From NCBI GenBank assembly GCA_964466335.1, contig CAYXSD010000002.1, forward strand, positions 33,238 to 97,237: 64,000 nt of DNA, given 5' to 3'. How positions within the stretch are numbered: the first letter of the stretch is position 1; each line of letters opens with the position of its first letter. Origin of the DNA: an uncultured Spirochaetales bacterium (GTDB lineage: Bacteria > Spirochaetota > Spirochaetia > SPDA01 > CAYXSD01). Positions 38,617 through 64,000 of this stretch are shown here, piece after piece. A program made the translations under genes and the position numbers. The notes beneath the pieces are model-generated. The model saw only the letters and a list, made by a program, of their open reading frames with translations. It was not told where the DNA came from and did no database searches.

Positions 38617-41193
38617 ATGAATGAACAGGTAGAACAACTCTATACAGCCTTGAAAGATTTCACCCCTGGTGATCTGGTGGGAACAATAGAGATACAGGAA
38701 CAAATACAGACTATCCTTCAGGAGGCACCCCTCTCGCCTCAGCAGAAGGACCTGATAAAGAAAACCGATTCCTATCTCCAGGCAATGATAAAGAATGGAG
38801 CTGAAGAAGACGCTCTAAAAAAGATAGAAGGTATTGTCCAGGAGATGGAATCCCTCTTTAGTCCTCCCGCACCCAAGGAGGAGAAGGCCTCTGAAAAGGA
38901 GGAGCAGCAGGCGGTGGACGAGAGTGACCTGGAGGTCCTCTCTTCTTTCATGCTGGAGTCCAGAGACCATCTGGAAAATATCGAGGAAAAGATCCTCAAC
39001 CTGGAGAATGGGGAGGAACCCGATCTAGTAAATGATATTTTCCGTTCCATGCACACTATAAAGGGGGTGGCCTCATTTATAGGGCTTCATAAAATAAAAT
39101 CCCTCAGTCATTCCATGGAATCTGTTCTGGACAAACTCCGGGACAATGAAATAGAGATAAGTACGGACTTGGTGGACCTTCTTCTCTCCGGAGTTGATCT
39201 GCTCAATAAGATGCTTGCTGAACTGGACATACTCTCCCAGAAGGTACGATCTGAACCTGGAACTGTTAAAACCCTGGATTCCTCTCTGGATATCGAAGAG
39301 GTTGTCGGCCAGTTGGACACCATCTTTTACAAGGCAGAAGAGGGGGAGAGCTCCGTAGCCTTAGGCGAGGACGGTCAGGAACTTTTTACCCCGGAGATGC
39401 TGGAAAAATTTGTAGCGGAATCCTCGGACCTTCTCGATGCGGCAGAGGAGGCGGTCCTCGAACTGGAAAAGACACCGGAGGACCTTAGCCACATCGACAA
39501 TGCCTTTAGAAATATCCATACCATTAAAGGAAACGCCGGTTTCTTCGGCTATTCCTCCATAGAACGGCTCAGTATGGATATTGAGTCGGTAATGGACACG
39601 TTGCGAAAAAGAGAGAAGAAGGTAGAGCAGAATGTTATTACCGTCATTCTTGAAAGCATAGATGCCGTAAGGAAGGCATTACAGCATATCGGTCAACCTG
39701 AAGAAGCCGGCACGGAAACAGCGGAAGTGGAAGGCGAAGAAGGCATTACCGCTGAAACAGGCGCACCGGCAGCGGAGACCGGTGCCGTGTCAGCGAAGAA
39801 GAAGGCCCAAATAGATACTGATTATAGACCTTTAGGAGAGACCCTGGTGGAGATGGGGACTGTTAGTGAAGAAATGGTAGAAAAAGCCCTGCAGCGCCAG
39901 CAGAGACGGCTGGGAGAAATTTTGGTGGACCAGGGAGCGGTAAGCAAGGAAGATTTAACCTCCGCTTTAGCACAGCAGGGGAAGAAAAAGCCTGGTGAGG
40001 CAGATCAGTTTACCAATTACAAAACCACCCGCAAGGACATCCGGGTAGATACAGAGAAGTTGGATAGGCTCTTCGATCTTATGGGTGAGCTTATTACCTC
40101 CGAGGCTATGGTAATAGATAATCCGGATTTAGAAAATCACGATTTTGAAGGATTCAATACAGCAACGAACAACCTTTCAAAAATTACCAGAGAGATGCAG
40201 GAAATTACCATGACCATCCGGATGATTCCCCTGGAAGGACTCTTTAACAAGATGAGACGGCTTACCAGAGATCTCTCAAGGAAATTCGAAAAAAAGATCA
40301 ACTTGCATATACACGGCGCGGAAACCGAGATGGATAGGAATGTTATGGAAGAGATATCCGATCCTCTCGTTCATATTATTCGAAACTCCATTGACCATGG
40401 CATTGAACCACCCAAGACAAGAGAGGAGCGCGGGAAAGAAGAAGCGGGCAATATTTGGCTTTCCGCGAAATACGAGGGAAATGAGATCTGGATTACCATT
40501 CAGGATGATGGAGGAGGCCTGAAAAAAGAGAAGATACTTAAAAAGGCAGAGACCCAGGGAATCTTGAAGAGCGATCCCGCTTCCATGTCGGATAAGGAGA
40601 TCTGGAACCTCATTTTCGAACCTGGATTTTCTACGGCGGACAAGGTGTCCGAAATTTCCGGCAGGGGAGTGGGAATGGATGTGGTGAAGCGAAACATCGA
40701 GAAGCTTCGGGGAAAGATCGACATATCTTCGGAAGAAGCAAAGGGTACCGCGATCATCTTGAGAATCCCTCTAACATTGGCAATCATAGACGGAATTTCG
40801 CTAAAAGTAGGAAAACAACTCTTTGCTCTCCCCATAAACGATGTTATCGAGTTCTATAAAGCCGCGGCGGACCAGATTACAAAGACAGACAAGCAGGCTG
40901 AGGTCCTCACCCTGAGAAAGGAAATCCTTCCAGTGGTAAAGCTATTTAATGTCTACAGTTTGAAAACGGAAGTTACCTCAGTTTCTGAGGGTATTATGAT
41001 TGTAGCTTTTGCTGATGGTAAAAAGGCGGCCCTGATGGCGGATGAAATTGTTGGGTACCAACAGTTGGTGGTGAAGGCTCTGCCGGAGTACATGGGAGAT
41101 ATGAACGCCATATCCGGTTGCAGCATTATGGGCAACGGAGATGTCAATCTCATCATCGACACCAATGCTCTTGTGCAGCAGGTATTGGGATAA
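38617..41193 (+). CDS. cheA: Chemotaxis histidine kinase CheA with two tandem HPt (P1) domains
   Basis: Two HPt motifs are present: FRSMHTIKGVASFIG and FRNIHTIKGNAGFFG. A dimerisation domain follows. The HATPase_c motif is GNIWLSAKYEGNEIWITIQDDGGGL, and a C-terminal CheW-like P5 domain completes the protein. Confidence 0.85.
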   Translation: MNEQVEQLYTALKDFTPGDLVGTIEIQEQIQTILQEAPLSPQQKDLIKKTDSYLQAMIKNGAEEDALKKIEGIVQEMESLFSPPAPKEEKASEKEEQQAVDESDLEVLSSFMLESRDHLENIEEKILNLENGEEPDLVNDIFRSMHTIKGVASFIGLHKIKSLSHSMESVLDKLRDNEIEISTDLVDLLLSGVDLLNKMLAELDILSQKVRSEPGTVKTLDSSLDIEEVVGQLDTIFYKAEEGESSVALGEDGQELFTPEMLEKFVAESSDLLDAAEEAVLELEKTPEDLSHIDNAFRNIHTIKGNAGFFGYSSIERLSMDIESVMDTLRKREKKVEQNVITVILESIDAVRKALQHIGQPEEAGTETAEVEGEEGITAETGAPAAETGAVSAKKKAQIDTDYRPLGETLVEMGTVSEEMVEKALQRQQRRLGEILVDQGAVSKEDLTSALAQQGKKKPGEADQFTNYKTTRKDIRVDTEKLDRLFDLMGELITSEAMVIDNPDLENHDFEGFNTATNNLSKITREMQEITMTIRMIPLEGLFNKMRRLTRDLSRKFEKKINLHIHGAETEMDRNVMEEISDPLVHIIRNSIDHGIEPPKTREERGKEEAGNIWLSAKYEGNEIWITIQDDGGGLKKEKILKKAETQGILKSDPASMSDKEIWNLIFEPGFSTADKVSEISGRGVGMDVVKRNIEKLRGKIDISSEEAKGTAIILRIPLTLAIIDGISLKVGKQLFALPINDVIEFYKAAADQITKTDKQAEVLTLRKEILPVVKLFNVYSLKTEVTSVSEGIMIVAFADGKKAALMADEIVGYQQLVVKALPEYMGDMNAISGCSIMGNGDVNLIIDTNALVQQVLG

Positions 41194-49132: not shown

Positions 49133-51124
49133 ATGGAGTATAAAAGCGAGGTACTCGCGTTACTAAAATTGTACACGAAGCGTAATCGGAGTGCTAATCT
49201 CAATTTTACTGATTTTCTCGAATTTGTTGGAAAGTATGTTCAACAATACGCACAAAAACGACCGAAACTCGCCGCCCTTAAAGAAAACACCTCCCTGCAG
49301 GTAACGGTGGAATTGGAAGAGATGGCCACTCAAGGCATCTGCACCCTTACGTACGATGATAAGGGGAAGCTCTCCTCTCTCCATTTTCCCGGCTATTTCA
49401 AGTCGGTGGTGGAGCAATACTATGTAACAATGAAGGAAGACCCGGAAATGCTCTTTCCCGATGAGGAAAGGTTGAAGTTGGAGGTCCCGGGGGATTTGAA
49501 GACGGTATTAGACGTCAAAAACGATTTTCTCAACTTTCTTGGTTCCATGTCTTTGGACGATGAGAACAAAGTAATAAAAATTACCTTCCCGGAAGATTTG
49601 AAATCCATGATTATTACGCTTCCGGTAATGCGGGAAATGCTGCTTCAGCTCTGTGTAAAGAAAATGTCCCTCTTTTTTAACAAACAGAAAAATTTAAATT
49701 ACTACAGGAACAGACTCTATTCAGTGTTTGGAAATAAGAATATTACTGTTCAGGACCTCATTACCGGAATCGTTCAGGACCAGTCCAGGGTATACGATAC
49801 CTTTCGTTCCCCCAACGATTTTCAGTTTCGATTTTGGACAACCCTTTCAAATTTGATTATTAAAGATTACAAAGATAAAGCCAATAAACTCGAGGAGGAA
49901 CATGAGATTTGCCAGGCCTGTTACCTTTTGGGGTTCTACTGCGTATATTTTAGAAAGATGGAACAGAAGGAGAAGGAGGCGGAGGGGAGTTTAAGGGAAG
50001 TGGAGCGCCTCTTTCGAAAGGAGCCGTTCCTCTACACTCTTTCCGATATATACGGGTGCAAGGACAGTAAAGGCCTGCCCGTATTAAAGAACGTTTCAAG
50101 AGAGAGGATCGACACCTTTATATCGGAGAGGAGCTCAAAACAGGAGAAGGACAAACTTCCGGAAATTGTAAGGCTTAGGACCCCGGATAAAAAAGAATAC
50201 TATGTGAGAAAAGAAGCACTCTTAGGTATATTTGTCAATCGCCGAAAAGAAATGATCCAGAAGCTTAAAAGTAAATTCCTTCAGCGATGGGTAGGGGTCC
50301 TAAAGGAACACTCCACCTTAAAGGAGATGAAGGAGGAGAGGGCCTTTACGCAGAGCATCGATCAGGCCGTTAAAGAAGAGGACCCCATATTCTACAGTAT
50401 GCTCAATTTTAGTCTCCTTTTTCTGCTTAAAGATGAGGTAAATACCAGCTACAGTGTGGACCAGGAGTTGGAACAGGTCTTGGATCTTAAGAAACAGGAC
50501 CTCGTTTCCATCCCTCAGCTTTTTCAGCTTAACCGGGAGAAGCTCTATGCTGAAGCAAGGTCCCATCTCCCCTTTATGGAAACATTGCCCGTTATTGGGG
50601 GAATCGTAGTCTTTTTGAAAAGACTCTTTGGAGGGGGCAAAAAAAAGGGAAAGAAAGGTAAGACAGGTCCTTCAGAGAAAAATGGAACTGTCTCAGCTTT
50701 TGGCGGGAATGTAATTATGGGGGAAGGAAAGCCTATGGGAGGGGGAGAAAAAGGTACTGTTAATGTTAGGGCGACGGCAAAGAAGAACCGGGCGGAATAC
50801 ACAAAGCGTGTAGCCGAATTAAAGGTACATTTCGTAGGCAAGTCGACTCCCTTGGATCAGAGGCTTCAAGAACTCATTGACAAGTGGAACCATTTGATCG
50901 ATCCCACTGCCCGAGAGCATCTCGTGGAGGATGTCAACTCAGCGGTAAGGGCGTTTTTAAGAAGGAACAACTGGGGTTCCTCCAGCCGCACTCCTTCGGT
51001 GGAGGAGATCCAGAAAATGGCAATGAGATTGGCAGAAGACAGCATGTTTACCCAGATAAAGCGGAAAGATCCATTTTGGCGTTACCTTGAGGTGTACATT
51101 GTGAGGGTACTCTCAGAAAAATAG
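49133..51124 (+). CDS. Hypothetical protein, 663 aa, one internal hydrophobic segment followed by a Gly/Lys-rich stretch
   Basis: A long ORF with coding-like composition and no motif I can recognise. Confidence 0.4.
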   Translation: MEYKSEVLALLKLYTKRNRSANLNFTDFLEFVGKYVQQYAQKRPKLAALKENTSLQVTVELEEMATQGICTLTYDDKGKLSSLHFPGYFKSVVEQYYVTMKEDPEMLFPDEERLKLEVPGDLKTVLDVKNDFLNFLGSMSLDDENKVIKITFPEDLKSMIITLPVMREMLLQLCVKKMSLFFNKQKNLNYYRNRLYSVFGNKNITVQDLITGIVQDQSRVYDTFRSPNDFQFRFWTTLSNLIIKDYKDKANKLEEEHEICQACYLLGFYCVYFRKMEQKEKEAEGSLREVERLFRKEPFLYTLSDIYGCKDSKGLPVLKNVSRERIDTFISERSSKQEKDKLPEIVRLRTPDKKEYYVRKEALLGIFVNRRKEMIQKLKSKFLQRWVGVLKEHSTLKEMKEERAFTQSIDQAVKEEDPIFYSMLNFSLLFLLKDEVNTSYSVDQELEQVLDLKKQDLVSIPQLFQLNREKLYAEARSHLPFMETLPVIGGIVVFLKRLFGGGKKKGKKGKTGPSEKNGTVSAFGGNVIMGEGKPMGGGEKGTVNVRATAKKNRAEYTKRVAELKVHFVGKSTPLDQRLQELIDKWNHLIDPTAREHLVEDVNSAVRAFLRRNNWGSSSRTPSVEEIQKMAMRLAEDSMFTQIKRKDPFWRYLEVYIVRVLSEK

Positions 51125-51855: not shown

Positions 51856-54546
51856 TTAGGCTTTTTCGACCTTCACTGCACAGACCTTGAACTCCGGTAT
51901 CTTCGCAATCGGGTCCAAGGCGTCATTGGTGAGGATGTTCGCGGCAGCCTCCTTGAAGTGGAACGCCATAAAGACGGAGCCCGGTCTCGATCGCTTTGTT
52001 ACCACCGCCCGGGCGGTAACGGTACCGCGGCGGGAGGAGATTCGTGCGTTTTCCCCATCTGATATTGCCAAGGCTTCCGCGTCGACGGGGTGAATTTCTA
52101 CAAACCCGTCGGGCCTTACTTCATCCAGTCCCTCTGACCTTCTTGACATAGTACCGGTGTGGAAGTGATAGAGGATTCTCCCTGTGGTGAGAGCATAGGG
52201 ATACTCCTCGTCGGGAAGTTCCGCCGGATCGATGAAGTCCACAGCACTAAACAGCCCCTTCCCTCTGGCAAAAGCGTCCTTATGGAGGTAGGGAGTGCCC
52301 GGGTGGTCCTTTGTGGGGCAGGGCCACTGGAGGCCCATCCTTTCAATCCGTTTGTGTGTTATTCCGCCGTAGATCGGCATAACCGAGTTAATTTCCTCCA
52401 TGATGTGACTGGTACTGTCGTAGCGCATAGGATACCCCATTCTGCTGCTCACATCGCAGAGAATTTCCCAGTCCAGGCGTGCTTCTCCCGGGGCGGGCCG
52501 AATCTCCCGAAGGAGTTGGACCCTTCGTTCAGTGTTGGTAAAGGTTCCGTCCTTTTCGGCAAAACTCGCGGCGGGGAGTACTACATCAGCATACTCAGCT
52601 GTATCAGAGAGAAAGATATCCTGAACAACAATGAACTCCATTGCCTCCAGGTCCTTCTTGACCCTGTTTATGTTGGGATCGCTTAGGAAGGGGTTTTCAC
52701 CCATGATATACATACCTCGTATGGAGCCGTCCTCTGCTCCATGAAGCATCTCTACCACCGTCAATCCCAGATCGGGCGAGAGCGAAGTCTTCCAGGCCTC
52801 CTCGAATTTCTTTTGAAGCATTTCGTCCGTGACCTTCTGGTATCCCGGATACACATTGGGAAGGGCCCCTAAGTCGCAGGCCCCCTGAACGTTGTTCTGG
52901 CCCCTTAAAGGATTCACCCCGGTGTGTTTTTTCCCAATATTCCCGGTGAGCATCGCTAAGTTAGCCAGACTCAAGACATTGTCCGTGCCCGTGGTGTGTT
53001 GGGTAATCCCCATGCTGTAAACGATAGAGGCGGTCCCGGCGGTCGCGTACATCCTAGCCGCTTTTACAATGTCCTCCGCCGGTACACCGCTAATCTCCGA
53101 GGCACGTTTCGGTTCGTACTTCAGAACAACTTCGCGGAACTGTTCATAGTTTTCCGTCCTCTCGGCGATAAACTCCTCATCCGCCAATCCCTCGTTGATG
53201 ATAACATTCATGATGCCGTTAAAAAGGGCAACATCAGTTCCCGATTTATGCCTCAACCAAAGGTCGGCGAAAGGGACCAGCCCGATCCGTCTGGGGTCCG
53301 CTACTATGAGGTTCCCCCCGTTTTTCTCCACTGCTGCTTTAATGTCCAAGGCAATAATGGGATGGGCCTCGGTAGTGTTGGACCCTGTAACCAAAATACA
53401 GTCGGCGTTCCTCAGTTCCGCCATGGAGTTGGTCATTGCGCCGGAGCCGAAGGCCCTGGCGAGACCGGTAACGGTGGAAGAGTGGCAGAGTCTGGCGCAG
53501 TGGTCCACATTGTTCGTGCCGATACAGGCGCGGATGAATTTCTGAAAAATGTAGTTTTCTTCGTTGGTGCACTTCGCGCTGGAAAGTCCGCCAATGGCGT
53601 TGGGGCCGTATTTTTCCTTGATCTTGGTAAGATTTTCCGCCGTGTAGCTTAAAGCCTCTTCCCAGGATGTTTCCTCGAAGGATCCGTTTCGTTTTATCAG
53701 GGGCTTCGTTAACCGTTCCGGATGATCGATGAATTCGGTACCGAATTTACCCTTCACACAGAGGTTCCCGTTATTGACAGTGTTTTTGTCCGGGGTGGTA
53801 ACCTTAACCAGTTTGTTCTCTTTGGTGTGCATCTCCAGGGTACAGCCGCAACCGCAGTAGGGGCAGATCGTTTTTTCGCTTGTAAGTTCCCACTCTCTCC
53901 CCTTACCGATACGGTTTTTCTCAATAAGCGCACCAACGGGGCAAACGCTTATACAACGTCCGCAGGAAACACAGGTGGTATCTTGGAGTTTTCGGTCGAA
54001 AGCAGTGGCAATGGTAGCGGGAAATCCCCGGGCTCCGATGTTTATAGCCCGATCGAATTGGACTTCATTGCAGACATAAACGCAGCGACCGCAGAGGATA
54101 CACTTGTCGTAATCCCGGACAATAAAGGGATCATCATCTCTGATACCCCTTTCATTTCGTTCACCCTCGAAGGAGGGGCGGGTAATACCGAATTCGTAGG
54201 CGTACTTTTCCAGGAGACAGGTACCGCTTTTTTCACAGGTAATGCAGTCCACCTTGTGGTCCGAGAGGATCAACTCCAGGTTGAAGCGTCTCGCGTTACG
54301 GACGCGTTCCGTATCTGTATGTACCACCATTCCCTCGGCGGCCGCGTGAGAACAGGATGCGGCGAGGGACCTCATTCCTTCTACCTCTACCACACAAAGG
54401 CGGCAGGAGCTCATGGGGGGGAGGTCTTCACCGTAACAGAGGTGGGGTATTTCCACACCGGCCTTTTTAGCTGCCCAGTAGAGGGTCACTCCATTCTGTA
54501 CTGAAATTTTCTTTCCGTCTATTGTTAATGTAATATTGCTGCTCAT
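51856..54546 (-). CDS. fdhA: Molybdopterin-containing formate dehydrogenase alpha subunit (FdsA/FdhA type, NuoG-like N-terminus fused to a MopB catalytic domain), Cys-type
   Basis: N-terminal plant-type [2Fe-2S] motif. A His-Cys3 [4Fe-4S] motif (HKVDCITCEKSGTC), two CxxCxxCxxxCP ferredoxin motifs and the MopB cluster CPYCGCGC follow. CARLCHSST aligns to the FdhF RVUHGPS active site with Cys in place of Sec. There is no in-frame TGA. Confidence 0.6.
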   Translation of the reverse strand: MSSNITLTIDGKKISVQNGVTLYWAAKKAGVEIPHLCYGEDLPPMSSCRLCVVEVEGMRSLAASCSHAAAEGMVVHTDTERVRNARRFNLELILSDHKVDCITCEKSGTCLLEKYAYEFGITRPSFEGERNERGIRDDDPFIVRDYDKCILCGRCVYVCNEVQFDRAINIGARGFPATIATAFDRKLQDTTCVSCGRCISVCPVGALIEKNRIGKGREWELTSEKTICPYCGCGCTLEMHTKENKLVKVTTPDKNTVNNGNLCVKGKFGTEFIDHPERLTKPLIKRNGSFEETSWEEALSYTAENLTKIKEKYGPNAIGGLSSAKCTNEENYIFQKFIRACIGTNNVDHCARLCHSSTVTGLARAFGSGAMTNSMAELRNADCILVTGSNTTEAHPIIALDIKAAVEKNGGNLIVADPRRIGLVPFADLWLRHKSGTDVALFNGIMNVIINEGLADEEFIAERTENYEQFREVVLKYEPKRASEISGVPAEDIVKAARMYATAGTASIVYSMGITQHTTGTDNVLSLANLAMLTGNIGKKHTGVNPLRGQNNVQGACDLGALPNVYPGYQKVTDEMLQKKFEEAWKTSLSPDLGLTVVEMLHGAEDGSIRGMYIMGENPFLSDPNINRVKKDLEAMEFIVVQDIFLSDTAEYADVVLPAASFAEKDGTFTNTERRVQLLREIRPAPGEARLDWEILCDVSSRMGYPMRYDSTSHIMEEINSVMPIYGGITHKRIERMGLQWPCPTKDHPGTPYLHKDAFARGKGLFSAVDFIDPAELPDEEYPYALTTGRILYHFHTGTMSRRSEGLDEVRPDGFVEIHPVDAEALAISDGENARISSRRGTVTARAVVTKRSRPGSVFMAFHFKEAAANILTNDALDPIAKIPEFKVCAVKVEKA

Positions 54547-54572
54547 GGTAACTTCCTTTTAACCTACTAGGA

Positions 54573-56366
54573 TCATGAAACTTTAATGGCATCGAAGCGG
54601 CATGTGCTTAGACACATTCCACACTTAATACACTTATCCTGATCAATGACATGGACCTGCTTCGCCTCCCCGCTGATTGCGTCGACGGGACAGGCCTTAA
54701 AACAGGCATGACATCCGGTACAGTTCTCTTCAACTACGGTGTACTGGATGAGGTTTTTACAGACCCCCGCGGGACAGCGTTTTTCTTTGATATGCGCGTC
54801 ATACTCATGACGGAAATACTTCAATGTGGTGAGCACAGGATTTGGGGCGGTCTGCCCAAGGGCACAGAGGGCGGAGTCCTTAATAGCGTAGGCGGCGTTT
54901 TCCAGGATCTCGATGTCTTTTTCCGTTCCCCGTCCTTCGCAGATTGCCGTTAAGGTTTCCAGCATGCGTTTGGTACCGATCCTGCAGGGGACACATTTTC
55001 CGCAGGACTCCTCCTGGGTAAAGGAAAGAAAGTAACGGGCCACCTCTACCATGCATGTGGTTTCGTCCATAACGATCATTCCGCCTGAGCCCATAATACA
55101 ACCGGCTTTTATAAGCGACTCGAAATCTACGGTGATGTCCAAAAGAGATTCGGGAATACAGCCCCCGGAGGGCCCCCCGGTCTGGACAGCCTTAAATTTT
55201 TTGCCGTTAGGAATACCGCCGCCAATGTCGTAGATAATCTCCTTCAAGGTTATTCCCATGGGGACCTCTACCAAACCGGTATTGTTGACTTTTCCCACTA
55301 GTGAAAAAACTTTGGTGCCTTTACTGGTTTCTGTTCCGATGGATGAGAACATCTCAGCTCCGTGGTGAATGATTCGCGGAACATTGGCGAAGGTTTCTAC
55401 ATTATTGATATTAGTGGGTTTTCCCATATAACCGGCTTGGGCGGGGTAGGGCGGTTTTACCCGCGGCTGGGGCAGTCGGCCTTCCAGGGAGTTAATAAGG
55501 GAGGTTTCCTCTCCGCACACGAAAGCCCCCGCTCCGCGATGGACAGAGAGATCAAAGTTGAAACCGCTTCCGAGGATGTCCTCTCCTAAGAGACCGTAAT
55601 CCCTCGCCTGGTCAATGGCTAAAAGGACCCTCTTCAATGCCAGGGGATATTCGTTTCTAATATAGATAAATCCCTCATGAGCACCAATAGCCCTGGCCCC
55701 GATAATCATTCCTTCTAAGACCGCATGGGGATCGGATTCCACGATGGACCGGTCCATAAAGGCACCGGGGTCCCCCTCGTCGGCGTTACAAATAATATAC
55801 TTCTCTTCGCCTGGCTGGTCTTTACAGATCTTCCACTTTCTTCCAGTGGGAAACCCGGCCCCGCCCCGGCCTCGGAGGCCCGAGTTAAGTATTTCCTCTA
55901 CTATATCATCCGGAGTCATCTGGGTAAGTGCTTTTGCCAGGGCTTTGTAGCCCTCGCGGCCTATGTACTCGTCGATACTTTCAGGGTCGACAATCCCCCG
56001 GTTTGCCAGGGCGATAAGGCGCTGTTTCTTGAAGAAACCGATATCGCTCATTTTGGGGATCGGGGCTTCCTCCTTGGAAGGAGTGTACATGAGTTTTGGA
56101 ACAGGCCTCCCTTTTAGGAAATGTTCTTCCACCAAATAGGGGATGACCTCCTCAGTGAGGAGTTGATAGAAAATTCCATCCGGCTGGACTACCACAATAG
56201 GACCGTTGGCGCAGAAACCGTTACAGCCGGTAGTAACCACTTGGATTTCATTTTCCAATTTATGCTTTTTTAGTTCTTTTTCCAGGGTCTCTTTGATCTC
56301 AAAGGCGCCGTTGGAAACACAACCGGTACCAGTGCAGACCATTAGGTTCATTCTATAACGTGCCAT
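54573..56366 (-). CDS. NuoF-like NAD(P)H-binding flavoprotein subunit (HydB/HndC/FdhB type) with an N-terminal [2Fe-2S] and C-terminal 2x[4Fe-4S]
   Basis: GRGGAGFPTGRKW supplies the FMN/NADH motifs and ESCGKCVPCRIG the [4Fe-4S]. The N-terminal thioredoxin-like Cys motif is MVCTGTGC...GCNGFC. The C-terminus carries CTGCHACFKACP and CIKCGMCLSTC. Confidence 0.8.
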   Translation of the reverse strand: MARYRMNLMVCTGTGCVSNGAFEIKETLEKELKKHKLENEIQVVTTGCNGFCANGPIVVVQPDGIFYQLLTEEVIPYLVEEHFLKGRPVPKLMYTPSKEEAPIPKMSDIGFFKKQRLIALANRGIVDPESIDEYIGREGYKALAKALTQMTPDDIVEEILNSGLRGRGGAGFPTGRKWKICKDQPGEEKYIICNADEGDPGAFMDRSIVESDPHAVLEGMIIGARAIGAHEGFIYIRNEYPLALKRVLLAIDQARDYGLLGEDILGSGFNFDLSVHRGAGAFVCGEETSLINSLEGRLPQPRVKPPYPAQAGYMGKPTNINNVETFANVPRIIHHGAEMFSSIGTETSKGTKVFSLVGKVNNTGLVEVPMGITLKEIIYDIGGGIPNGKKFKAVQTGGPSGGCIPESLLDITVDFESLIKAGCIMGSGGMIVMDETTCMVEVARYFLSFTQEESCGKCVPCRIGTKRMLETLTAICEGRGTEKDIEILENAAYAIKDSALCALGQTAPNPVLTTLKYFRHEYDAHIKEKRCPAGVCKNLIQYTVVEENCTGCHACFKACPVDAISGEAKQVHVIDQDKCIKCGMCLSTCRFDAIKVS

Positions 56367-56746
56367 TACGATATCCTTTCGCTTCCGATTGCCAGCGCGT
56401 AGTCTTCAACGATTTCTCCGCCCAATACATGTCCGGAGAAGATTTTCTTTACCTTATCGCTGTTTAAATCGATGTATTTTACCGGGGCGGAACCTTGAAT
56501 TTCAATAGTTGCCATAGGTTCTTTGCTGCAAAGCCCGGCACATCCGGAAGTGGTAAGAATAATGTCCTTGGCGTCCACATTCTCGATTTCATTCATAAAG
56601 GTGGTAAGGATTTCCCTCGCTCCCGAGGCAATGCCGCAGGTCCCCATGTGGACTGTAATCTTTACTCTTCCAGCTCCCTCGCGAAGCTGGGTGGTCGATC
56701 TCATATTCTGGCTTATTTTGTCCAGGTCTTCCGGTTTTAGCTTCAT
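56366..56746 (-). CDS. Small HndB/HydD-like thioredoxin-fold ferredoxin-like subunit
   Basis: 126 aa, translationally coupled (ATGA overlap) to the nuoF-like gene. Only three Cys are present (TCGIASG, SGCAGLC). The assignment rests on size and position. Confidence 0.45.
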   Translation of the reverse strand: MKLKPEDLDKISQNMRSTTQLREGAGRVKITVHMGTCGIASGAREILTTFMNEIENVDAKDIILTTSGCAGLCSKEPMATIEIQGSAPVKYIDLNSDKVKKIFSGHVLGGEIVEDYALAIGSERIS

Positions 56747-56750
56747 ACCA

Positions 56751-57194
56751 TTACTCCTTTTCCTCTTTATTGGTGTCCCTTGTATTCCTATATCTATAGA
56801 TAAACGAAATCTCCGGATGTGTGAACTCCATTACCCGGATTGTTTCGGCTAAATCCCCCATCGGTTTGCGGTCCGGGTGGCTCCACTTGAAAGTCGCTAT
56901 GAGGCGGGTCCCGCCACCTGTTTTGGATTCTACAACAAGTTTGCCTTCGGCGTCACGTGCCGATTGGGCCAATAGGGGGACCCCCAACCCGATTCGCTTG
57001 TTTTCCTTGGAGCTAAAGAAGGGATCGGTTACATTTTTCATTGTGGTCTCGTCCATACCTTCACCGTCGTCTATTATCTCCAATTTGAGGATGTCCGTTT
57101 CCTGGTCCTCTGTAACATCGATGGTGATGTTCTCCGCCCCGGCCCGGATCGAATTATCCACAATGTCCAGAATATGCAATGATATGTCCTCCAT
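56751..57194 (-). CDS. Stand-alone GHKL (histidine-kinase-like) ATPase domain protein
   Basis: 147 aa with HATPase_c N-, G1- and G2-box-like motifs (LDIVDNSIRAG, IIDDGEGMD, GLGVPL). There is no HisKA or DHp domain. Confidence 0.65.
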   Translation of the reverse strand: MEDISLHILDIVDNSIRAGAENITIDVTEDQETDILKLEIIDDGEGMDETTMKNVTDPFFSSKENKRIGLGVPLLAQSARDAEGKLVVESKTGGGTRLIATFKWSHPDRKPMGDLAETIRVMEFTHPEISFIYRYRNTRDTNKEEKE

Positions 57195-57202
57195 ACCTCT
57201 CC

Positions 57203-57949
57203 CTAAAACTGAATTGATGAAAGGATTCTCCTTCCTTCTTGTTCTTTCACCGCTAATTGAAGTTCTCGGACCGTTGGGGTTTTCAGGAGGAACTCCGTTT
57301 TTGTCGTTCCGATGTCTCTTGGCTCATGGGCATCGGAGAAGGTGACAAAGGGGAAGCCCAGCCCCTTAAACTGGAAGGGGGAATGGTTATAGTTTCTCGA
57401 AAGTTCCAAGGCGTCCAAGGCCGTGTCCTCCGGGATAATACCCAACTGGCTTATGATTCCGTAGGCCTCCCTGTCAATATGGGATGCAATAGCGATTCCG
57501 CCGAATTCGTGAATTTTGGTAACGATTGTTTCAAGTTCTAAATCTGTTGCTCCAATAAGAAGATGTTCGTTCAATCCCGTTATGTAATCCTCATGGTCTA
57601 CGATGTACTGAGGCCCGAAAATGTCAGGATTGTTATCGCCGGGAAGATGAGAATAAATAATCCTCTGCATTTCTTCCAAGCCTTCTGCATGATCGAAATC
57701 AAAGATCCCGAGGAGATGTATTTCAGACTGAGTGGTTATCTCCATTCCACCTAGCACGGTCAGGGACGTTCCCTCCGCCGCCCTCCGTACTGCCTGCCAG
57801 TTCTCCGAGGCATTGTGGTCGCAGATGGCAATGGCCTGAAGTCCAGCTTTCAGAGCAGCGGCTACAATAGTGGTGGGGACACTTTTAGAGGCGCCGCAGG
57901 GGGAAAGGCAGGTGTGAATGTGCAAGTCCATGGAGAACCTCTTAAGCAT
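57203..57949 (-). CDS. PHP-domain phosphoesterase
   Basis: MDLHIHTCLSPCG...AICDHN is the PHP metal-binding His motif. The start is set at M(LKRF) at 57949. The ORF-table start at 57997 overlaps the upstream gene by 56 nt. Confidence 0.6.
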   Translation of the reverse strand: MLKRFSMDLHIHTCLSPCGASKSVPTTIVAAALKAGLQAIAICDHNASENWQAVRRAAEGTSLTVLGGMEITTQSEIHLLGIFDFDHAEGLEEMQRIIYSHLPGDNNPDIFGPQYIVDHEDYITGLNEHLLIGATDLELETIVTKIHEFGGIAIASHIDREAYGIISQLGIIPEDTALDALELSRNYNHSPFQFKGLGFPFVTFSDAHEPRDIGTTKTEFLLKTPTVRELQLAVKEQEGRRILSSIQF

Positions 57950-58292
57950 CCTTCTGTCCGGGGAGCCCGGCTTTGTAGAGCCTTCCTGCCATCTCAAAGG
58001 CCGGGAGCCGGCTTACCAGTAGGGGCATCTTTTCCGATTTTGCCTTTTCCAGGGTCGCCTCTTCCGGCCTTCTGCCTCCAATAAGAACGATCCCGCTGAG
58101 TTCCTTCATTAGGGCTACAGCGACAATATTAATATGGATCTGCAGAGTAATCCAAAGATCGTCTTTTTGGGCGTTGCCTATGACGTCGCTTAAAAGATCG
58201 CTGGCGTATCCGCATCGCACTTCCCGATCGAGATCGGATTCACCGGACAGTACTTCCAGATCGAATTGTTCCACGATATCACTCAGTTTCAT
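57942..58292 (-). CDS. DRTGG-domain protein
   Basis: 116 aa. It resembles the DRTGG domain seen with CBS domains and phosphotransacetylase N-termini (LLSDVIGN...IVLIGGRRP...LLVSRL). It overlaps the CBS/GHKL gene by 4 nt. Confidence 0.5.
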   Translation of the reverse strand: MKLSDIVEQFDLEVLSGESDLDREVRCGYASDLLSDVIGNAQKDDLWITLQIHINIVAVALMKELSGIVLIGGRRPEEATLEKAKSEKMPLLVSRLPAFEMAGRLYKAGLPGQKDA

Positions 58293-59209
58293 GGTCCCTC
58301 CAGGGGAATTGTGCTCCTTAGGGTGGTCCCCTCTCCTACCATAGAGGTAATGGAGAATTCTTCGGAGTTTTTCTTGATGTTTGGCAAACCCATTCCTGCT
58401 CCGAACCCCAATTCCCTAATCCAGTCCGGTGCAGTGGAGTATCCCGGCATCATTACCTTTTCTATATCCTCAATACCGGGGCCCTTGTCGGTTATTTCTA
58501 TCAGAATCTTTTCCTTGTCGAGCTTTGCTTTAATTTTTCCTCCTCCCCCGTAGAGTATACAGTTCATCTCCGCCTCGTAAAACACTATGGACGCTCGAGT
58601 TACAATGTCGGGATGGATATTCAGATAGGAGAGATTTTTGCGGAATTTACTGGAAATTTCTCCTCCCACTTCGATCTTTCCCCCGGGTACGGAGTAAGAG
58701 AAGGAGAGTTCTGTGTGGTCCGAGACTACTTCATGAAAGAAGTGGAATTTGCTGAAATCTTCCATTTCTTTCTGATAGAAATCGATATCCAAGGCCTTTA
58801 ATAGGCAGATAATAACATCGAATTTGGTAATAACCCCAATAAGCAACCCGGTTTCTCGTTCTATTACCGGAAATTCATAGAACCGGTACTGTTCGAAATG
58901 TCTGATGGCTTCTACCAGGGGTTCATCGTCGAAGAGGGTCACCACATCCTTTGACATCCGGTGGGTCACCTCCACTTCTTCCTTCCCGTTCTGAAGCCAG
59001 TTAATGTAGTCTTCTACACTGATGATCCCTATGAGGTGTTTATCCTCAATCACCGGTGCGGCGGTGATCTTTTGGCTCCGCAGTATAGACCGGACCTCGC
59101 TCATTTTGGTGTCCTTGGAAATGGTGCAAACATCCAGCTCCACAGCGTCCCGTAATTTTAATTCGTAAAACAATTCCTGGACCTTGTGGATATGCTGTAG
59201 ACGCTTCAT
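58289..59209 (-). CDS. CBS-pair plus GHKL ATPase domain protein
   Basis: Two CBS-like motifs in the N-terminal half (ITAAPVIEDKHLIGIISVEDY, EFPVIERETGLLIGVITKFD). A C-terminal HATPase_c follows (ITDKGPGIED...GFGAGMGLPN...GEGTTL). Confidence 0.65.
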   Translation of the reverse strand: MKRLQHIHKVQELFYELKLRDAVELDVCTISKDTKMSEVRSILRSQKITAAPVIEDKHLIGIISVEDYINWLQNGKEEVEVTHRMSKDVVTLFDDEPLVEAIRHFEQYRFYEFPVIERETGLLIGVITKFDVIICLLKALDIDFYQKEMEDFSKFHFFHEVVSDHTELSFSYSVPGGKIEVGGEISSKFRKNLSYLNIHPDIVTRASIVFYEAEMNCILYGGGGKIKAKLDKEKILIEITDKGPGIEDIEKVMMPGYSTAPDWIRELGFGAGMGLPNIKKNSEEFSITSMVGEGTTLRSTIPLEGP

Positions 59210-59592
59210 GGAGTGCTGCTATAGTCCTTATTTCCGGTACAACCGACCATGCCGGCGCAGTAGAGCCTTCCACAGGCATCGAAAAGAGAGTAATCCGTTC
59301 TTATAAGGGGGACCTGGTTTTTCGTTGCCAATTCCATTGTTTCTTTGGGCGGGACCTTCCCGAAGACAAAACAGACAGCCGCAATTTCTACCATCTCCGC
59401 GGTCCTAATTGTTTGCGGATTGGTCAGTCCTGTAAGAAGGAGGGATTTTCGTTTGCTACTGGAGAGTATATCACTCATTAAATCGGAGGCATTAACGGAG
59501 GAAATAGGATGGGTAAGCCAGTTGTTGTCTATTAGTACCTCGGCGTCTAAAATCTCAAGGATGTTTTCCCAACTAAAGGACCTCTGCTGCAT
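59206..59592 (-). CDS. DRTGG-domain protein (second copy)
   Basis: 128 aa and similar to the 57942..58292 product (LMSDILSS...LLLTGLTNPQ...PLIRTDY). It overlaps the downstream gene by 4 nt. Confidence 0.5.
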   Translation of the reverse strand: MQQRSFSWENILEILDAEVLIDNNWLTHPISSVNASDLMSDILSSSKRKSLLLTGLTNPQTIRTAEMVEIAAVCFVFGKVPPKETMELATKNQVPLIRTDYSLFDACGRLYCAGMVGCTGNKDYSSTP

Positions 59593-59598
59593 AGGCTG

Positions 59599-60051
59599 TT
59601 AATCCTTATACTGTTTGAGGAGTCTTGAGACCTTTTTGGGATCGAGTTTTCCATGATACTCCCCGTCTATTACGGCCAGCGGCCCCAGGGCGCAGGCGCC
59701 CACGCAGTTGACTGTTTCCAGGGTAAATTTCCCGTCCTCTGTTGTCTCTCCCGCTTTAATTCCCAGGTTCCGTTCAATTTCTTCCACTACCTGAGCGGCC
59801 CCCCGAACGTGACAGGCCGTACCTACGCAGACAGCACAGTAGTGTTCTCCCATAGGTTCTAATCTCAGGGAAGCATAAAAAGTACAGAGGCTGTAGAGCT
59901 TGCTTAGAGGGACCTTCGTTTCCTCGGAGACTGTTTCGAGTTTGTCCTCCGGGATATATCCGTATTCCGAGGACATGTCCTGAAGAAGACCAATAAGCGA
60001 TGTTTTTCCAGATGTATAACCCTCTATAATTGTGTCAAGTGTGTCCGCCAT
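59599..60051 (-). CDS. NuoE-like thioredoxin-fold [2Fe-2S] subunit (HydC/HoxE/FdhG type)
   Basis: The Cys pattern is CAVCVGTAC...C(x4)C in VNCVGACALGP. A GGAGGA RBS lies 9 nt upstream of the ATG. It is the first gene of the operon. Confidence 0.75.
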   Translation of the reverse strand: MADTLDTIIEGYTSGKTSLIGLLQDMSSEYGYIPEDKLETVSEETKVPLSKLYSLCTFYASLRLEPMGEHYCAVCVGTACHVRGAAQVVEEIERNLGIKAGETTEDGKFTLETVNCVGACALGPLAVIDGEYHGKLDPKKVSRLLKQYKD

Positions 60052-60102
60052 TCTGCCTTATCCTCCATATGTAGTGATTAGCCTAAGGGCTAGACTCCAA
60101 TT

Positions 60103-60157
60103 TGTCAAGTTTCATTTTCTTTTCAGTCTCTTTCAAAATTAACCAATTTTGAAAGAG
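60103..60157 (-). promoter_or_regulatory. Putative promoter and upstream palindrome of the formate dehydrogenase operon
   Basis: On the minus strand there is a TTGACA (60103..60108) with a weak -10 (TAGGCT) 17 nt downstream. A perfect 13-bp inverted repeat, CTCTTTCAAAATT-N4-AATTTTGAAAGAG, spans 60128..60157 and is centred near -62. Confidence 0.35.
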
Positions 60158-60178
60158 GCTGATCCGCAAAGATAATAT

Positions 60179-61444
60179 TTATTTTTTTACCACCGGTTTT
60201 AAGTAGGCGCTCCAGTAACTCATTCCAACGAATAGTCCTCCTCCAATGATATTGCCTAGGGTCACGGGTATAAGATTGGCCGCTATGAAACTTCCCCAGT
60301 TTAATGCCCCGGCATCGTAGGCCGCCGGTGCGGCAACACCACCTAGGGTCTTAAGGATAATTCCCATGGGGATGAAGTACATATTGGCAATGCTGTGTTC
60401 AAAACCAATGGCTACGAAGGCCATAACAGGGAAGATCATAGCAAAGATCTTTCCAACCACCTGCCTTGAGGCAAGTGCCATCCACACGGCAAGGCAGACC
60501 AACCAGTTACATCCGATGGCCCGCGTGAGGGCTTCCACAAAGGAGAGAGATACCTTTCCGTAGGCAATATTCATAGCGGAGGCAGCTATGGCGTTTCCCC
60601 CGGTTTCCCAGAGTCCTGAAAAGAAGTAGAGCATGACGATAAATATCGACCCTATAAAGTTGGCCACATACACCACGCCCCAACGGGCTGCCATCTTTCC
60701 CAAAGTGATTTCTCCGGTCATGACACTGGAAATCATGAGGTTGTTTCCAGTAAAGAGTTCCGCTCCCGCAATGACCACGAGAATTAGTCCTAAACTGAAG
60801 ACGCTTCCACTCATGAACTTGGTAAATCCTGTCCCGAAATGGGAAGCCATGTCGAAGGTCACTGTGGTTGCCAGTACCCCCGCGAAGGCAATATAAGCCC
60901 CGGCAAGGACGGCAAGTACGAAAACGGACATCCAAGGGGAGGTAGTTTTACCGACTCCCACTTTTTGGGCTACCGTTTCGGCGATGGTTTTAGGAGAGTT
61001 GTCCTCCAGAGAGGGGGTGGGAAAGGAGACGGAACCGATCATGGATTTGGCCCGGTCTAGTTCTTTTTTCTCGTTTTCTATCTTCTTCTTTTGGGCCTTT
61101 TGTACCGCCTGGGTAATCTCCACCGGTGAAAAGGGCTTAGCAATGAAGTCTAAGGCGCCCCGCTTCATAGCCTCTGTCGCCCGGTCCACCGAGGGATAGC
61201 CGCTTATCATTACCACTGTTGATTCGGGAGAGCGGGTTTCAATTTCGGTAACCACATCCATGCCGTTAAATTCGGGCATCTGCCAATCGCAGAGAATAAC
61301 ATCGTAGAACGACTCCCCAATGAGTTTTAAGCCCTCCGTTGGGCTAGTGGTCGTAACGACTTCAAAGCCTTCGGCAGTAAAAATTTTGGAACATGAATCC
61401 AGCACTACCTGTTCGTCGTCGATAATCAACATCTTTTCTTTCAT
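60179..61444 (-). CDS. Response-regulator receiver domain fused to a formate/nitrite transporter (FocA/NirC family) channel
   Basis: The canonical REC motifs at residues 1-120 are DD, the acceptor Asp in ILCDWQMP, S in VMISGY and K in AKPF. Residues 170-421 carry FNT signatures (GAELFTGNN, GFEHSIANM, NLIPVTLGNIIGGGLFVG) and six hydrophobic helices. Confidence 0.8.
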   Translation of the reverse strand: MKEKMLIIDDEQVVLDSCSKIFTAEGFEVVTTTSPTEGLKLIGESFYDVILCDWQMPEFNGMDVVTEIETRSPESTVVMISGYPSVDRATEAMKRGALDFIAKPFSPVEITQAVQKAQKKKIENEKKELDRAKSMIGSVSFPTPSLEDNSPKTIAETVAQKVGVGKTTSPWMSVFVLAVLAGAYIAFAGVLATTVTFDMASHFGTGFTKFMSGSVFSLGLILVVIAGAELFTGNNLMISSVMTGEITLGKMAARWGVVYVANFIGSIFIVMLYFFSGLWETGGNAIAASAMNIAYGKVSLSFVEALTRAIGCNWLVCLAVWMALASRQVVGKIFAMIFPVMAFVAIGFEHSIANMYFIPMGIILKTLGGVAAPAAYDAGALNWGSFIAANLIPVTLGNIIGGGLFVGMSYWSAYLKPVVKK

Positions 61445-61540
61445 TTTTTGCTCCTCTTTGCTATCCCTGTAGTGTATGGTACAACCCTGCTTTTTCGGGC
61501 ATGGGTTATAAACTGATGTCCGTTTTGTCTTATTGCAGTG

Positions 61541-62164
61541 TTACCAAATTTCGGCGCTTAACTTCTGATTAAACCAGCGGCGCTGAACATCCGATAGAGG
61601 ACCTGTGTAACTTTCAATCCACTTCTGGTCCCCCGTTAGAAGGGCAAGCTTCTCTTGGGTGGTAAGATCATAGGGATCGAGGGCATCCACCTTTTTAGAG
61701 AATATTTCCTCTTCAAATATCGGGTCGGTGCCGAGCCGATCGAGGATGGAGAGGACTTCATCCTTATGTACCAGACCCTGCTTTTCCTGGGGTGTATCAG
61801 TTATTTTTGCTGTTGCCTTTTCAATTCTGGATAAAAGATCATCCGGGGAGAATGGTTTTTCTACGTAATCGGCGGCGCCCAACTTCATAGACTGCACTGC
61901 CGTATCAACGGAGGAGTACCCGGTAATAATTATGACCGGCAAGCCCGGCTTTTCCTTCTTAATTTCCCTAAGCACCTTCATACCACCGATTTCGGGCATA
62001 CGGATGTCCGAGAGCACCAAAGAGAATTCTTCCTTCAGCACCTGCTTAAGACCCTCCTTAGGGCTAAGAGAGGTGTGGACTTCGAAATCTCTCGATGTGA
62101 GGATCTTTTTTACACTGTCCAGAATAATCTGATCGTCATCTATTACCATTATTTTTCTAGCCAA
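61541..62164 (-). CDS. Response regulator with a receiver domain and an 85-aa C-terminal domain of unknown type
   Basis: The REC motifs are DDD, D in LSDIRMP, T in IITGY and K in EKPF. This REC is closely similar to that of the REC-FNT fusion. The C-terminal domain has no recognisable motif. Confidence 0.7.
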   Translation of the reverse strand: MARKIMVIDDDQIILDSVKKILTSRDFEVHTSLSPKEGLKQVLKEEFSLVLSDIRMPEIGGMKVLREIKKEKPGLPVIIITGYSSVDTAVQSMKLGAADYVEKPFSPDDLLSRIEKATAKITDTPQEKQGLVHKDEVLSILDRLGTDPIFEEEIFSKKVDALDPYDLTTQEKLALLTGDQKWIESYTGPLSDVQRRWFNQKLSAEIW

Positions 62165-62178
62165 GGATATATCCCTCC

Positions 62179-62556
62179 TTATGTATTTGTGTTTTCTTTG
62201 TGATTGTTAAGAATGTTATTGATAGCGTTTATTAGTTCTTCGGGAGTAAAGGGTTTTGGAATGTATTTCTCCGCTCCCGTGGACAAGCTGTGTCGAATGG
62301 TCTCTTCTGTGGAATAACCGCTTATTACCAATATGGGGATATGGGGAAAACGTTTCTTGCAGATAGAAATCAAATAGAGCCCGTCCTTTTCCGGCATTTT
62401 TATGTCCGCAATAATTAAACCTATTGAATGGTTCTCTAAGTTTTCCAGGGCCTCATCCACCGAGGAGGTGTAAAGGGATTCGAATTCAGTGTCCCGGAGG
62501 ATTCTCTTACAGCTTTCGATTACAATGGGATCATCATCGACAATAAGAATTTTCAT
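62179..62556 (-). CDS. Stand-alone receiver domain protein (CheY-like single-domain response regulator)
   Basis: 125 aa. The REC motifs are DDD, D in IADIKMP, S in ISGY and K in PKPF. Confidence 0.75.
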   Translation of the reverse strand: MKILIVDDDPIVIESCKRILRDTEFESLYTSSVDEALENLENHSIGLIIADIKMPEKDGLYLISICKKRFPHIPILVISGYSTEETIRHSLSTGAEKYIPKPFTPEELINAINNILNNHKENTNT

Positions 62557-64000
62557 GTAGTATCATCCTCCAAGGGCAGCCAGATGGTGAAGGTGCTTCC
62601 CTCTCCGACTTGACTCTTTACGTGAATGGATCCTCCGTGTCTTTCTATTATACCATAGGAAACGGACAAACCAAGGCCCGTACCTTTTCCAACTTCCTTG
62701 GTGGTAAAGAAAGGATCAAAGAGTTTTTTTAGATTTTCCTCCGGAATTCCGCATCCTGTATCGGCAATGGTTATTTCTATACCCCGCTTACTCTCCTTCT
62801 CGGTCGAAACGGCGATCCCGGTTCTTACATTAATATGCCCACCGTTGTCTACACTGTCTATTGCGTTAATGAGAACGTTGATTAGTACCGATTGAATTTG
62901 GTTTCTGTCCAGGGTTCGGGTGGGAAGGTTTTCTTTTAGATCGAAGCAGAGGATAGCCCCCTTCACCAGGGCCTGATTCTCGATAAGGGATATAGTGTCT
63001 CTAATAAGTTCGTTTATGTCCGTTTCCACTGGGGTAATTTCGGTTTGTCTTGAAAAGTCGAGTAACCCTTTTACAATATCCCGGACTCTCTCGGTAGCTT
63101 TGGAAATAGTCCGAAGGTCCTCCACAACATCTTCGGGAAGGTCTTCCCGTTTTAAAAGCATGTGGGTAAAGGTAAGCACTCCGGTTAAAGGGTTGTTTAT
63201 CTCGTGAGCTACCCCCGCTGCCAGTCTTCCCACACTGGCCTGCTTCTCCGACTGAAGAAGTTTTATTTCGCTTACCTCCCGCTGTCTGCGGTCCCTCTCC
63301 CGCAGGGAGGTTAGCATTTCCATAAAGGTCCGCTGGAGTATTCCAATTTCATCCTTGGAAATAGGGGCAATTTTGGGACTGAGGTCTCCCTCTGAAACCC
63401 GATGACTTGCCTCAATAAGCTGGTGCATAGGATGTAAGAGTTTTTTCCCCAAAAGAAAGGCGAAAGTTCCCGCTATGACCATTCCCGCCAGGGTTATAAG
63501 GAGGAAGAGTATGAAGGTGTTTTCCCGGATGTCTTGGTATTTCTCTTCGGTTATGCCGACATTGAGCATTCCCACACGCTTGTTGAAGATGTCGTATATA
63601 GGCTCATAGGCAGTGAGGAACCACCCGCTTACTACAAAAGCTCTTCCGCTCCAACGTTCACCCTGGAGAAGAACACTGTTTCGTACCTCCTTGGAGGCTC
63701 GCGTTCCGACTGCCCTGTGTCCTTCCCAGGCAAGGACATTGGTGGATATTCTGATGTCCTCTAAAAAGATGGTGGAATTTCCTACACTCTCTCCTCTATA
63801 GGTTTCTCCTCGGAAGACCGTCTCCTTCACCCTGTCTACTATAGAGTTGTCCTTATTAATAAGGACCCCGCCGTAGAGTATACCCACAAAAGTCTGGTCC
63901 TTGTAGAGAGGAACTGCAGAGGAGATGGTCATGCCCCTGGTTTCCCGGTCCTTATCGGAGGGCTCGGATCTTGGTGTATCTTTAACTTCTATGGCTGCTT
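62553..64000 (-). CDS. Membrane sensor histidine kinase, N-terminus beyond the window end, with extracytoplasmic sensor, TM, HAMP, HisKA and HATPase_c
   Basis: The HisKA H-box is [13 protein letters not shown]. The HATPase_c motifs include DTGCGIPEE and [12 protein letters not shown] helix and HAMP-like linker precede them, and the sensor region is Cache-like. The reading frame probably continues past 63932 to the window edge. Confidence 0.75.

Follow-up and report, generated by a model that had tools for sequence, protein, structure and literature searches.

Can a formate channel carry its own phosphorylation switch? This question is raised by a gene, here called REC-FNT, in a stretch of 64,000 nucleotides of DNA from an uncultured Spirochaetales bacterium (GenBank assembly GCA_964466335.1, contig CAYXSD010000002.1, positions 33,238 to 97,237). 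We refer to this whole stretch as the window and give positions in its numbering; features of the window lie on the minus strand unless a plus strand is indicated. REC-FNT (60179..61444) encodes 421 amino acids (aa) plus a stop codon, and joins a two-component receiver domain (REC, PF00072) to a FocA-like channel of the formate/nitrite transporter family (FNT, PF01226). The open reading frame (ORF) list of the window gives it as a single uninterrupted, ATG-started ORF of 421 codons, with a Shine-Dalgarno sequence (GAGGAG) approximately 6 nt 5' of the ATG. Such a one-ORF fusion had been proposed in a first-pass annotation of the sequence, and the Pfam profiles agree: Response_reg matches aa 6-115 (E 2e-27, 95.9 bits against a curated cutoff of 30.2) and Form_Nir_trans aa 160-411 (E 1.4e-78, 264 bits against 34.6), both far over the cutoffs, with a linker of roughly 40 aa between receiver and channel. 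The motifs GAELFTG, GFEHSIANM and GNIIGGG, which the same annotation had singled out in the channel, are all found in the translation. By every sequence criterion tested, REC-FNT is a member of both families. Overall, the interpretation of REC-FNT as a phosphorylation-gated channel is supported as a well-founded hypothesis, to which the conservation described below adds considerable weight.

A chimaera of this type might also be an artefact, in which separate receiver and focA genes have been joined by a frameshift or in a chimeric contig. We found no point in favour of this explanation, whose probability is practically nil, and we reject it. Contigs from four different samples, drawn from three source collections (JGI, ENA and Logan), encode exactly the same REC-FNT protein (100% identity); the identical copies are metagenomic, two of them from microbial-mat samples. 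Because the identical protein recurs on contigs from four samples, a frameshift or misassembly is excluded. The best 120 database matches all carry both domains at approximately 420 aa, the fusion is found in one ORF in 18 species-level genomes and the linker holds invariant residues.

How common is the architecture? A protein search was made in a collection of 5.8 billion proteins, and the best 120 matches were examined. All have both Pfam domains in 416-444 aa; the fusion is present in at least 120 protein clusters. All of the matches are named only ‘formate/nitrite transporter’, an annotation that leaves the regulatory half invisible. Contigs of the GTDB genomes, one genome per species, gave at least 18 species-level genomes with REC-FNT in a single ORF, all of them metagenome-assembled genomes (MAGs). 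These comprise four Spirochaetales/Spirochaetaceae, about nine Desulfobacterota (‘delta’), three Acidobacteriota, one Planctomycetota and one Myxococcota, and hence span five phyla. The closest named relatives of the window protein are from uncultured Spirochaetales, at 74-75% identity. In a library of 50%-identity representatives we found four or five full-length fusion clusters (P0128, P0129, P0131, P0132, plus fragments), and this small number indicates that the family is narrow in sequence space.

The receiver half (aa 1-118; 61091..61444) has the acidic pair D9/D10, the acceptor D53 (codon 61286-61288), S81, F100 and K103-P104 (K103 codon 61136-61138). An AlphaFold 2 (AF2) model predicts the (beta/alpha)5 fold, with five successive strand-helix units. 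D9, D10, D53, K103 and P104 are invariant in the 120 family members (65-75% identity), positions 81 and 100 stay S/T and F/Y, and the residue pattern is likewise kept in separate REC-FNT clades at only 42-47% identity. The claim of a complete canonical receiver with all phospho-acceptor and signalling residues thus holds down to 42% identity. Such invariance points to purifying selection on the phosphorylation chemistry, rather than to a decayed pseudo-receiver. Pseudo-receivers are nevertheless common, and the AF2 model gives no information specific to the switch, so we considered whether the domain is a phosphorylation-independent pseudo-receiver that serves solely as a structural cytoplasmic cap. 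Pseudo-receivers typically lose catalytic and switch residues. Here, every clade examined retains all five catalytic/switch positions, either unchanged or with conservative substitutions, and a cognate-type kinase is always adjacent to the fusion, which makes the structural cap very improbable.

The channel half (core of six helices, aa 171-421; 60179..60934) shares 42% identity with E. coli FocA (3kcu) across 259 aligned aa. Its closest solved channels in a PDB sequence search were the FocA proteins of E. coli, Salmonella and Vibrio (E 3e-54 to 5e-52), with NirC and the hydrosulfide channel matching far more weakly (approximately 1e-25). A six-transmembrane (TM) aquaporin-like protomer fold is predicted for this half, with a predicted local distance difference test (pLDDT) score mostly above 90 in the AF2 monomer. 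The pore residues of FocA map one to one and are identical (FocA first): F75/F216, L79/L220, L89/L230, T91/T232, K156/K297, N172/N313, V175/V316, F202/F343, E208/E349, H209/H350, N213/N354 and N262/N398. Pore features that are characteristic of FNT channels are therefore in place, namely the central His350 of the S-loop (codon 60395-60397), Thr232 of the Omega-loop (codon 60749-60751) and the two hydrophobic constrictions, and the full six-helix channel that had been claimed proves to have a complete FocA-like pore. H350, T232, F216, L220, L230, V316 and F343 are invariant in all 120 members of the main clade; T232, V316 and F343 are only nearly invariant in the divergent clades. In NCBIfam the protein passes the family model TIGR00790 ‘fnt’ (249.7 against a cutoff of 232.3), and it is FocA-like, yet not a FocA equivalog by the cutoffs of that database.

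Two side observations concern FNT channels more broadly. P0129, a fusion cluster representative of 420 aa and 48% identity, keeps the receiver residues and has the pore changes T232 to A and N354 to S, which suggests that transport is altered or lost in this branch. Long N- or C-terminal extensions are also seen on other FNT proteins, namely L048 (4174-6519), P0186 (785 aa), P0158, P0159, P0200, P0183, P0198, P0274, L043, L053 and L068. In one Actinomycetota-type protein DUF4389 precedes the FNT domain, and the remaining extensions are without a Pfam match. From these sequences, FNT channels seem to have acquired appended cytoplasmic modules repeatedly.

If the receiver is to act on the pore, the junction between them is where the signal would pass. 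[quoted passage not shown] The first-pass annotation had placed the receiver in the position of this gating helix. That part of the proposal did not stand: aa 157-170 of REC-FNT align to FocA residues 17-30, and because the alignment begins at FocA residue 17 the helix has a counterpart in REC-FNT. We therefore reject replacement of the helix; it is retained (aa 154-170, TIAETVAQKVGVGKTTSP; 60935..60985) and the receiver precedes it. With its N-terminus in the cytoplasm, the FNT domain has a topology compatible with a receiver fusion. By per-column entropy, no other segment of the protein is as conserved as the N-helix (mean 0.56 bits, against 0.68 for the TM core), and the helix extension plus linker that precede it are the most variable part (1.29 bits). 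This intervening region (aa 119-153; 60986..61090) is predicted by AF2 to begin as a continuation of receiver helix alpha-5, giving one long charged helix from aa 107 to 133, followed by a low-confidence segment. The linker holds four invariant residues, F141, P142, D148 and P151, although it is predicted to be flexible.

A further comparison set the 120 fused proteins against 96 FocA-like relatives without the fusion. It picked out twelve channel positions that never vary among the fused proteins and whose residues are rare in the unfused ones. Six of these fall in cytoplasmic segments (N-helix: T157, T168, S169 and W171; TM4-5 loop: L324 and Q328), and a further three lie at cytoplasmic helix ends (V174, R254 and M408). 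The enrichment at the cytoplasmic face (Fisher p=0.02) is modest and is confounded by the fused proteins forming one clade; it is what would be expected of a cytoplasmic face that has adapted to the appended module, and is suggestive of such adaptation.

Which partner might phosphorylate the receiver? The conserved unit is a cassette consisting of a Cache-type histidine kinase, a single-domain receiver (REC1), zero to two copies of a second type of receiver protein (REC-X) and REC-FNT. It is conserved in MAGs of Spirochaetota, Desulfobacterota, Acidobacteriota, Planctomycetota and Myxococcota, with variable flanks, and the kinase and REC1 precede REC-FNT in every locus with upstream DNA across these five phyla. 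In the window, the kinase gene (62553..64000; Cache_3-Cache_2/sCache_3_3, HAMP, HisKA and HATPase in Pfam) runs off the end, so that only the C-terminal ~480 aa lie there; the full-length kinase at locus L001 has 648 aa, with two TM segments around a periplasmic sensor of ~290 aa. Kinase orthologues adjoin the fusion with E values of 1e-100 to 1e-207, and in NCBIfam the kinase is closest to AtoS/ZraS, i.e. NtrB-like. The periplasmic region gave a best match of only E ~0.03 against PDB sequences, to ligand-binding domains of chemoreceptors, from which no ligand can be inferred. REC1 (62179..62556; 125 aa) and the kinase gene share 4 bp, and REC-X (61541..62164) follows REC1 after 14 bp; a further 96 bp separate REC-X from REC-FNT; the next gene lies 127 bp beyond. 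The alpha-1 regions of the three cassette receivers are very similar, consistent with one shared partner kinase.

Two variants of the kinase arrangement were seen. At L086 (7181-8961), the predicted cassette kinase has just 368 aa (HAMP-HisKA-HATPase) and lacks the Cache sensor; a Rex-like gene (Put_DNA-bind_N + CoA_binding) comes before it. The locus may represent a redox-linked form of the cassette, or the gene call may be truncated. At L085 (11480-13283, Desulfobacterota-type), two genes come after REC-FNT, one for an additional hybrid kinase (REC-HisKA-HATPase) and one for a further single receiver, which hints at a longer phosphorelay in some lineages.

REC-X belongs to a family of ~208 aa (P0278-P0397), with a receiver recognized by Pfam and a helical C-terminal domain of ~85 aa (helices 134-205 in an AF2 model with a pLDDT of 88). 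This domain gave no Pfam match even at E 10, and Foldseek with the full REC-X model returned matches dominated by the receiver half. It contains invariant H133, W182, W197 and W207 and the motif YDLT..EKLALLTGD..WIE. An Hpt-like role was considered for H133, and no Hpt signal was found. Two proteins, P0281 (330 aa) and P0283 (328 aa), have two receiver domains and the REC-X C-terminal domain in one chain; they look like REC1-REC-X fusions, which suggests that the accessory receivers work together. REC-X could be an output or a modulator of the cassette.

No DNA-binding or enzymatic output domain was recognized in the cassette proteins with Pfam or NCBIfam, which leaves the channel as the one effector-like module common to all cassettes. 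The signal might nevertheless run in the opposite direction. The channel would then be an input, as a transceptor or phosphate sink whose formate occupancy or flux alters phosphate handling by the receiver and so tunes the phosphate supply to REC1 or REC-X, which would carry the real output to targets. Transporters do serve as sensors elsewhere, for example the Amt-kinase fusion Ks-Amt5, and DctA/DcuB with DcuS. The cassette offers three receivers per kinase, a REC1 that is universal and translationally coupled through its 4-bp overlap, accessory receivers that are fused in some genomes and so would act together, and a conserved REC-X C-terminal domain that could be an output. On the other hand, REC-X is missing from many cassettes (L009, L013-15, L017, L019 and L085), REC1 is without an output domain, and in the loci that do not have REC-X the channel is the sole effector-like module. 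An N-terminal receiver normally regulates the domain attached to it, and the full pore is conserved, though this alone is compatible with sensing. On these grounds, we regard a channel acting as input as unlikely.

The genes beyond the cassette bear on both the substrate and the mode of action. The earlier reading had placed REC-FNT between a kinase/multi-receiver cluster and a formate dehydrogenase (FDH) operon. In the window this is accurate, with all of these genes on the same strand; the linkage to FDH does not extend to all lineages. Our survey of neighbours found the kinase and REC1 to be constant and FDH to be present in six loci, against about nine without it, among those with enough flanking sequence. 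FDH is adjacent in the window, in the Spirochaetales loci L006-L008 and in L088, where FdhD and a MobA-like gene are also upstream, and it lies at a greater distance in L021. We therefore reject FDH as an obligatory part of the system; its linkage is lineage-specific. In the loci without FDH, the flanks encode CoA-transferases, acetyl-CoA synthetase, sugar ABC transporters and other proteins.

This distribution helps to weigh a model in which phosphorylation controls docking, of FDH (or of REC1/REC-X) at the channel mouth as a metabolon, or else pentamer stability or localization, instead of the pore itself. The E. coli N-terminal helix works by binding an enzyme, PflB, which delivers formate; FDH genes are adjacent in several lineages; and the short invariant motif in the linker is of a kind that often binds partners. 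However, FDH is unlinked in most Desulfobacterota and Acidobacteriota loci, and no candidate partner co-varies with the cassette except the kinase and REC1. Control of docking, stability or localization accordingly appears rather improbable to us.

The identity of the cargo is a separate question, as a substrate other than formate would be compatible with any of these regulatory models. The channel might carry a different small anion or a weak acid (nitrite, hydrosulfide, acetate and lactate are examples): FocA itself passes several fermentation acids, the protein scores under the FocA equivalog cutoffs of NCBIfam, and some flanks encode CoA-transferases, acetyl-CoA synthetase or a 2-hydroxyacid dehydrogenase instead of FDH. 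Against this, FocA proteins are the top matches among solved structures (E 3e-54, compared with approximately 1e-25 for NirC and the hydrosulfide channel), every constriction and central residue of FocA is identical, and the cassette is embedded in genes for FDH or FDH maturation in the window, L006-8 and L088. A non-formate cargo has, in our estimate, a low probability; the FocA-identical pore residues and the FDH linkage in several lineages favour formate.

From these data, we consider it reasonably probable that phosphorylation regulates transport through the fused channel, via Asp53 and the N-helix. REC-FNT would then be a response regulator with a membrane channel as its output domain. 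Its partner would be the membrane kinase encoded first in the cassette, whose Cache-type sensor would detect a periplasmic cue; guesses for the ligand would be formate outside the cell or a different small acid. We infer that the kinase would autophosphorylate and then phosphorylate Asp53 in the cytoplasmic receiver of every subunit of the FNT pentamer. From there, the switch in the receiver (S81, F100 and the alpha4-beta5-alpha5 face) would reach the retained FocA-type N-helix, on the cytoplasmic mouth of the pore, by way of the alpha-5 extension helix and the FP..D..P linker. The pore would open, close or shift its directional bias, so that the built-in receiver takes the role of PflB. REC1, and REC-X where present, would compete for the kinase as phosphate sinks or modulators and permit a fast, reversible response. 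Passage of formate to or from the cytoplasmic FDH would thereby be switched post-translationally, and not by transcription.

Several observations weigh against this mechanism or parts of it. The interface between receiver and channel, for which an AF2 prediction had been suggested, was not usable in the monomer model built from a 120-sequence alignment: both domains fold (pLDDT 77.9, predicted template modelling score 0.57), no confident receiver-channel interface is given and aa 129-168 have a pLDDT below 50. Linker length and sequence vary among REC-FNT clades, which means that no single rigid coupling path is kept family-wide. The fusion-specific cytoplasmic positions carry the clade effect described above. 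The channel would be pentameric, a mismatch with the dimeric switching usual for receivers of the NtrC type. As regards formate, the FocA equivalog cutoffs of NCBIfam were not reached (TIGR04060, 242 against 290.1; NF008069, 209.8 against 440), and FDH is absent from about nine loci with enough flank, including L009, L014, L015, L018, L019 and L085-L087, so that the assignment of formate as substrate rests mainly on similarity to the FocA pore.

The FDH cluster downstream of the cassette in the window (51856..60051) is of the cytoplasmic, NAD(P)/ferredoxin type according to Pfam and forms context outside the conserved unit. It comprises genes for a NuoE-like protein (59599-60051), a DRTGG protein (59206-59592), a CBS-HATPase protein (58289-59209), a second DRTGG protein (57942-58292), a PHP protein (57203-57997), a HATPase protein (56751-57194), a small protein (56366-56746), a NuoF-like protein (54573-56366) and FdhA, with 2Fe-2S/4Fe-4S and molybdopterin domains (51856-54546). 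Between the genes for the NuoE-like and the NuoF-like protein, five small genes with putative regulatory roles (DRTGG, CBS-HATPase, DRTGG, PHP and HATPase; 56751-59592) recur as a set in L006, and a second, separate layer of post-translational control of FDH is possible. Further away, a 663-aa ORF on the plus strand (49133-51124), between genes for a HAD-type hydrolase and GTP cyclohydrolase I, matched no Pfam family at E 1e-3. Approximately 20 kb from the cassette, also on the plus strand (36812-41193), there are genes for a methyl-accepting chemotaxis protein (MCP) and for CheA (Hpt, H-kinase_dim, HATPase and CheW); as far as is visible, these are unrelated to the cassette. A scan of 59500-64000 for promoters and terminators returned counts equal to the shuffled expectation, and operon boundaries can therefore not be set by that scan.

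In anoxic habitats, formate serves as a main currency both for fermentation and for electron transfer between species, and to our knowledge the control of its passage across the membrane is understood only for the enterobacterial FocA-PflB pair. The REC-FNT family is widespread in uncultured sulfate reducers and their relatives, in spirochaetes and in acidobacteria, and these uncultured anaerobes would probably control formate passage directly by a two-component signal. The first-pass annotation knew of no described receiver-FNT fusion. We likewise found none in the full text of 7.7 million PMC papers and in bioRxiv, and neither an FNT phylogeny paper nor an archaeal two-component census mentions one; the Galperin 2006/2010 response-regulator classifications were outside this search and may hold a passing table entry. 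From the sequences, the novelty thus appears to lie in the regulator built into a familiar channel or, seen equally well from the other side, in the type of output attached to a response regulator. We give even chances to the stronger statement that this is the first recognized response regulator with an integral membrane channel as output, in which five receivers per pentamer, with REC1 and REC-X as chemotaxis-like sinks, act within seconds on the permeability of the membrane to formate and not on transcription. With a built-in phospho-switch of this kind, the two-component field would gain a new output class, direct channel control. REC-FNT would also offer a genetically simple, reconstitutable model for the gating of formate channels, in which D53A/D53E mutants and BeF3- would set defined off and on states, and a signal-controlled valve for small acids in synthetic biology.

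Comparison with known systems places these features in context. After the stand-alone receiver 3jte, the receivers of NtrC1 and DctD are among the closest solved receivers in the PDB sequence search, and their alignments cross the REC-FNT linker helix (1zy2 to aa 135, 1ny5 to aa 147 and 1l5y to aa 133). They share with REC-FNT a helical linker, in line with the predicted continuation of alpha-5 to aa 133, and the cassette kinase is NtrB-like. REC-FNT differs in having no AAA+ or DNA-binding domain and in that its output would be an integral membrane pentamer, so that the dimer-to-oligomer switching logic of NtrC1/DctD is not directly transferable to five-fold symmetry. An assignment as an NtrC-family sigma-54 activator was accordingly rejected: there is no AAA+ or HTH_8 domain, only REC and FNT were detected, and the likeness is confined to the receiver and linker helix.

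Links between transport and phospho-signalling are also known from Ks-Amt5, in which the ammonium transporter is the sensor and the kinase the output, and from plant aquaporins (PIPs), in which a loop Ser is phosphorylated by eukaryotic kinases. As in REC-FNT, a channel or transporter fold is tied to phospho-signalling, and the aquaporin-like FNT fold would be gated cytoplasmically; neither Ks-Amt5 nor the plant aquaporins use a receiver domain phosphorylated on Asp. Non-transcriptional response regulators are familiar from chemotaxis, where CheY acts on the flagellar switch and multiple CheY proteins can serve as phosphate sinks. The cassette resembles these CheY-type systems in its proposed post-translational output, in having several receivers per kinase and in having no DNA-binding domain. 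It differs in that CheA, CheW and MCP are not part of it, the kinase being a classical HisKA transmembrane sensor, and in that the target is fused to the receiver instead of being bound by it.

A close parallel is E. coli FocA-PflB, with which REC-FNT shares the FNT fold, 42% identity, identical pore residues including T91/H209 and a homologous N-terminal helix. The regulator differs, since in REC-FNT it would be a covalently attached phospho-switch that answers to a histidine kinase, and not a metabolic enzyme. No PflB-like gene is present in the window, and the linked enzyme, where there is one, is a cytoplasmic FDH of the NuoEF type. The established control of FocA likewise acts on the N-terminal helix from the cytoplasmic side (PMC11841067). 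If the proposed mechanism is true, the PflB-dependent gating of FocA through its N-helix would be one case of a general, re-wirable FNT gate.

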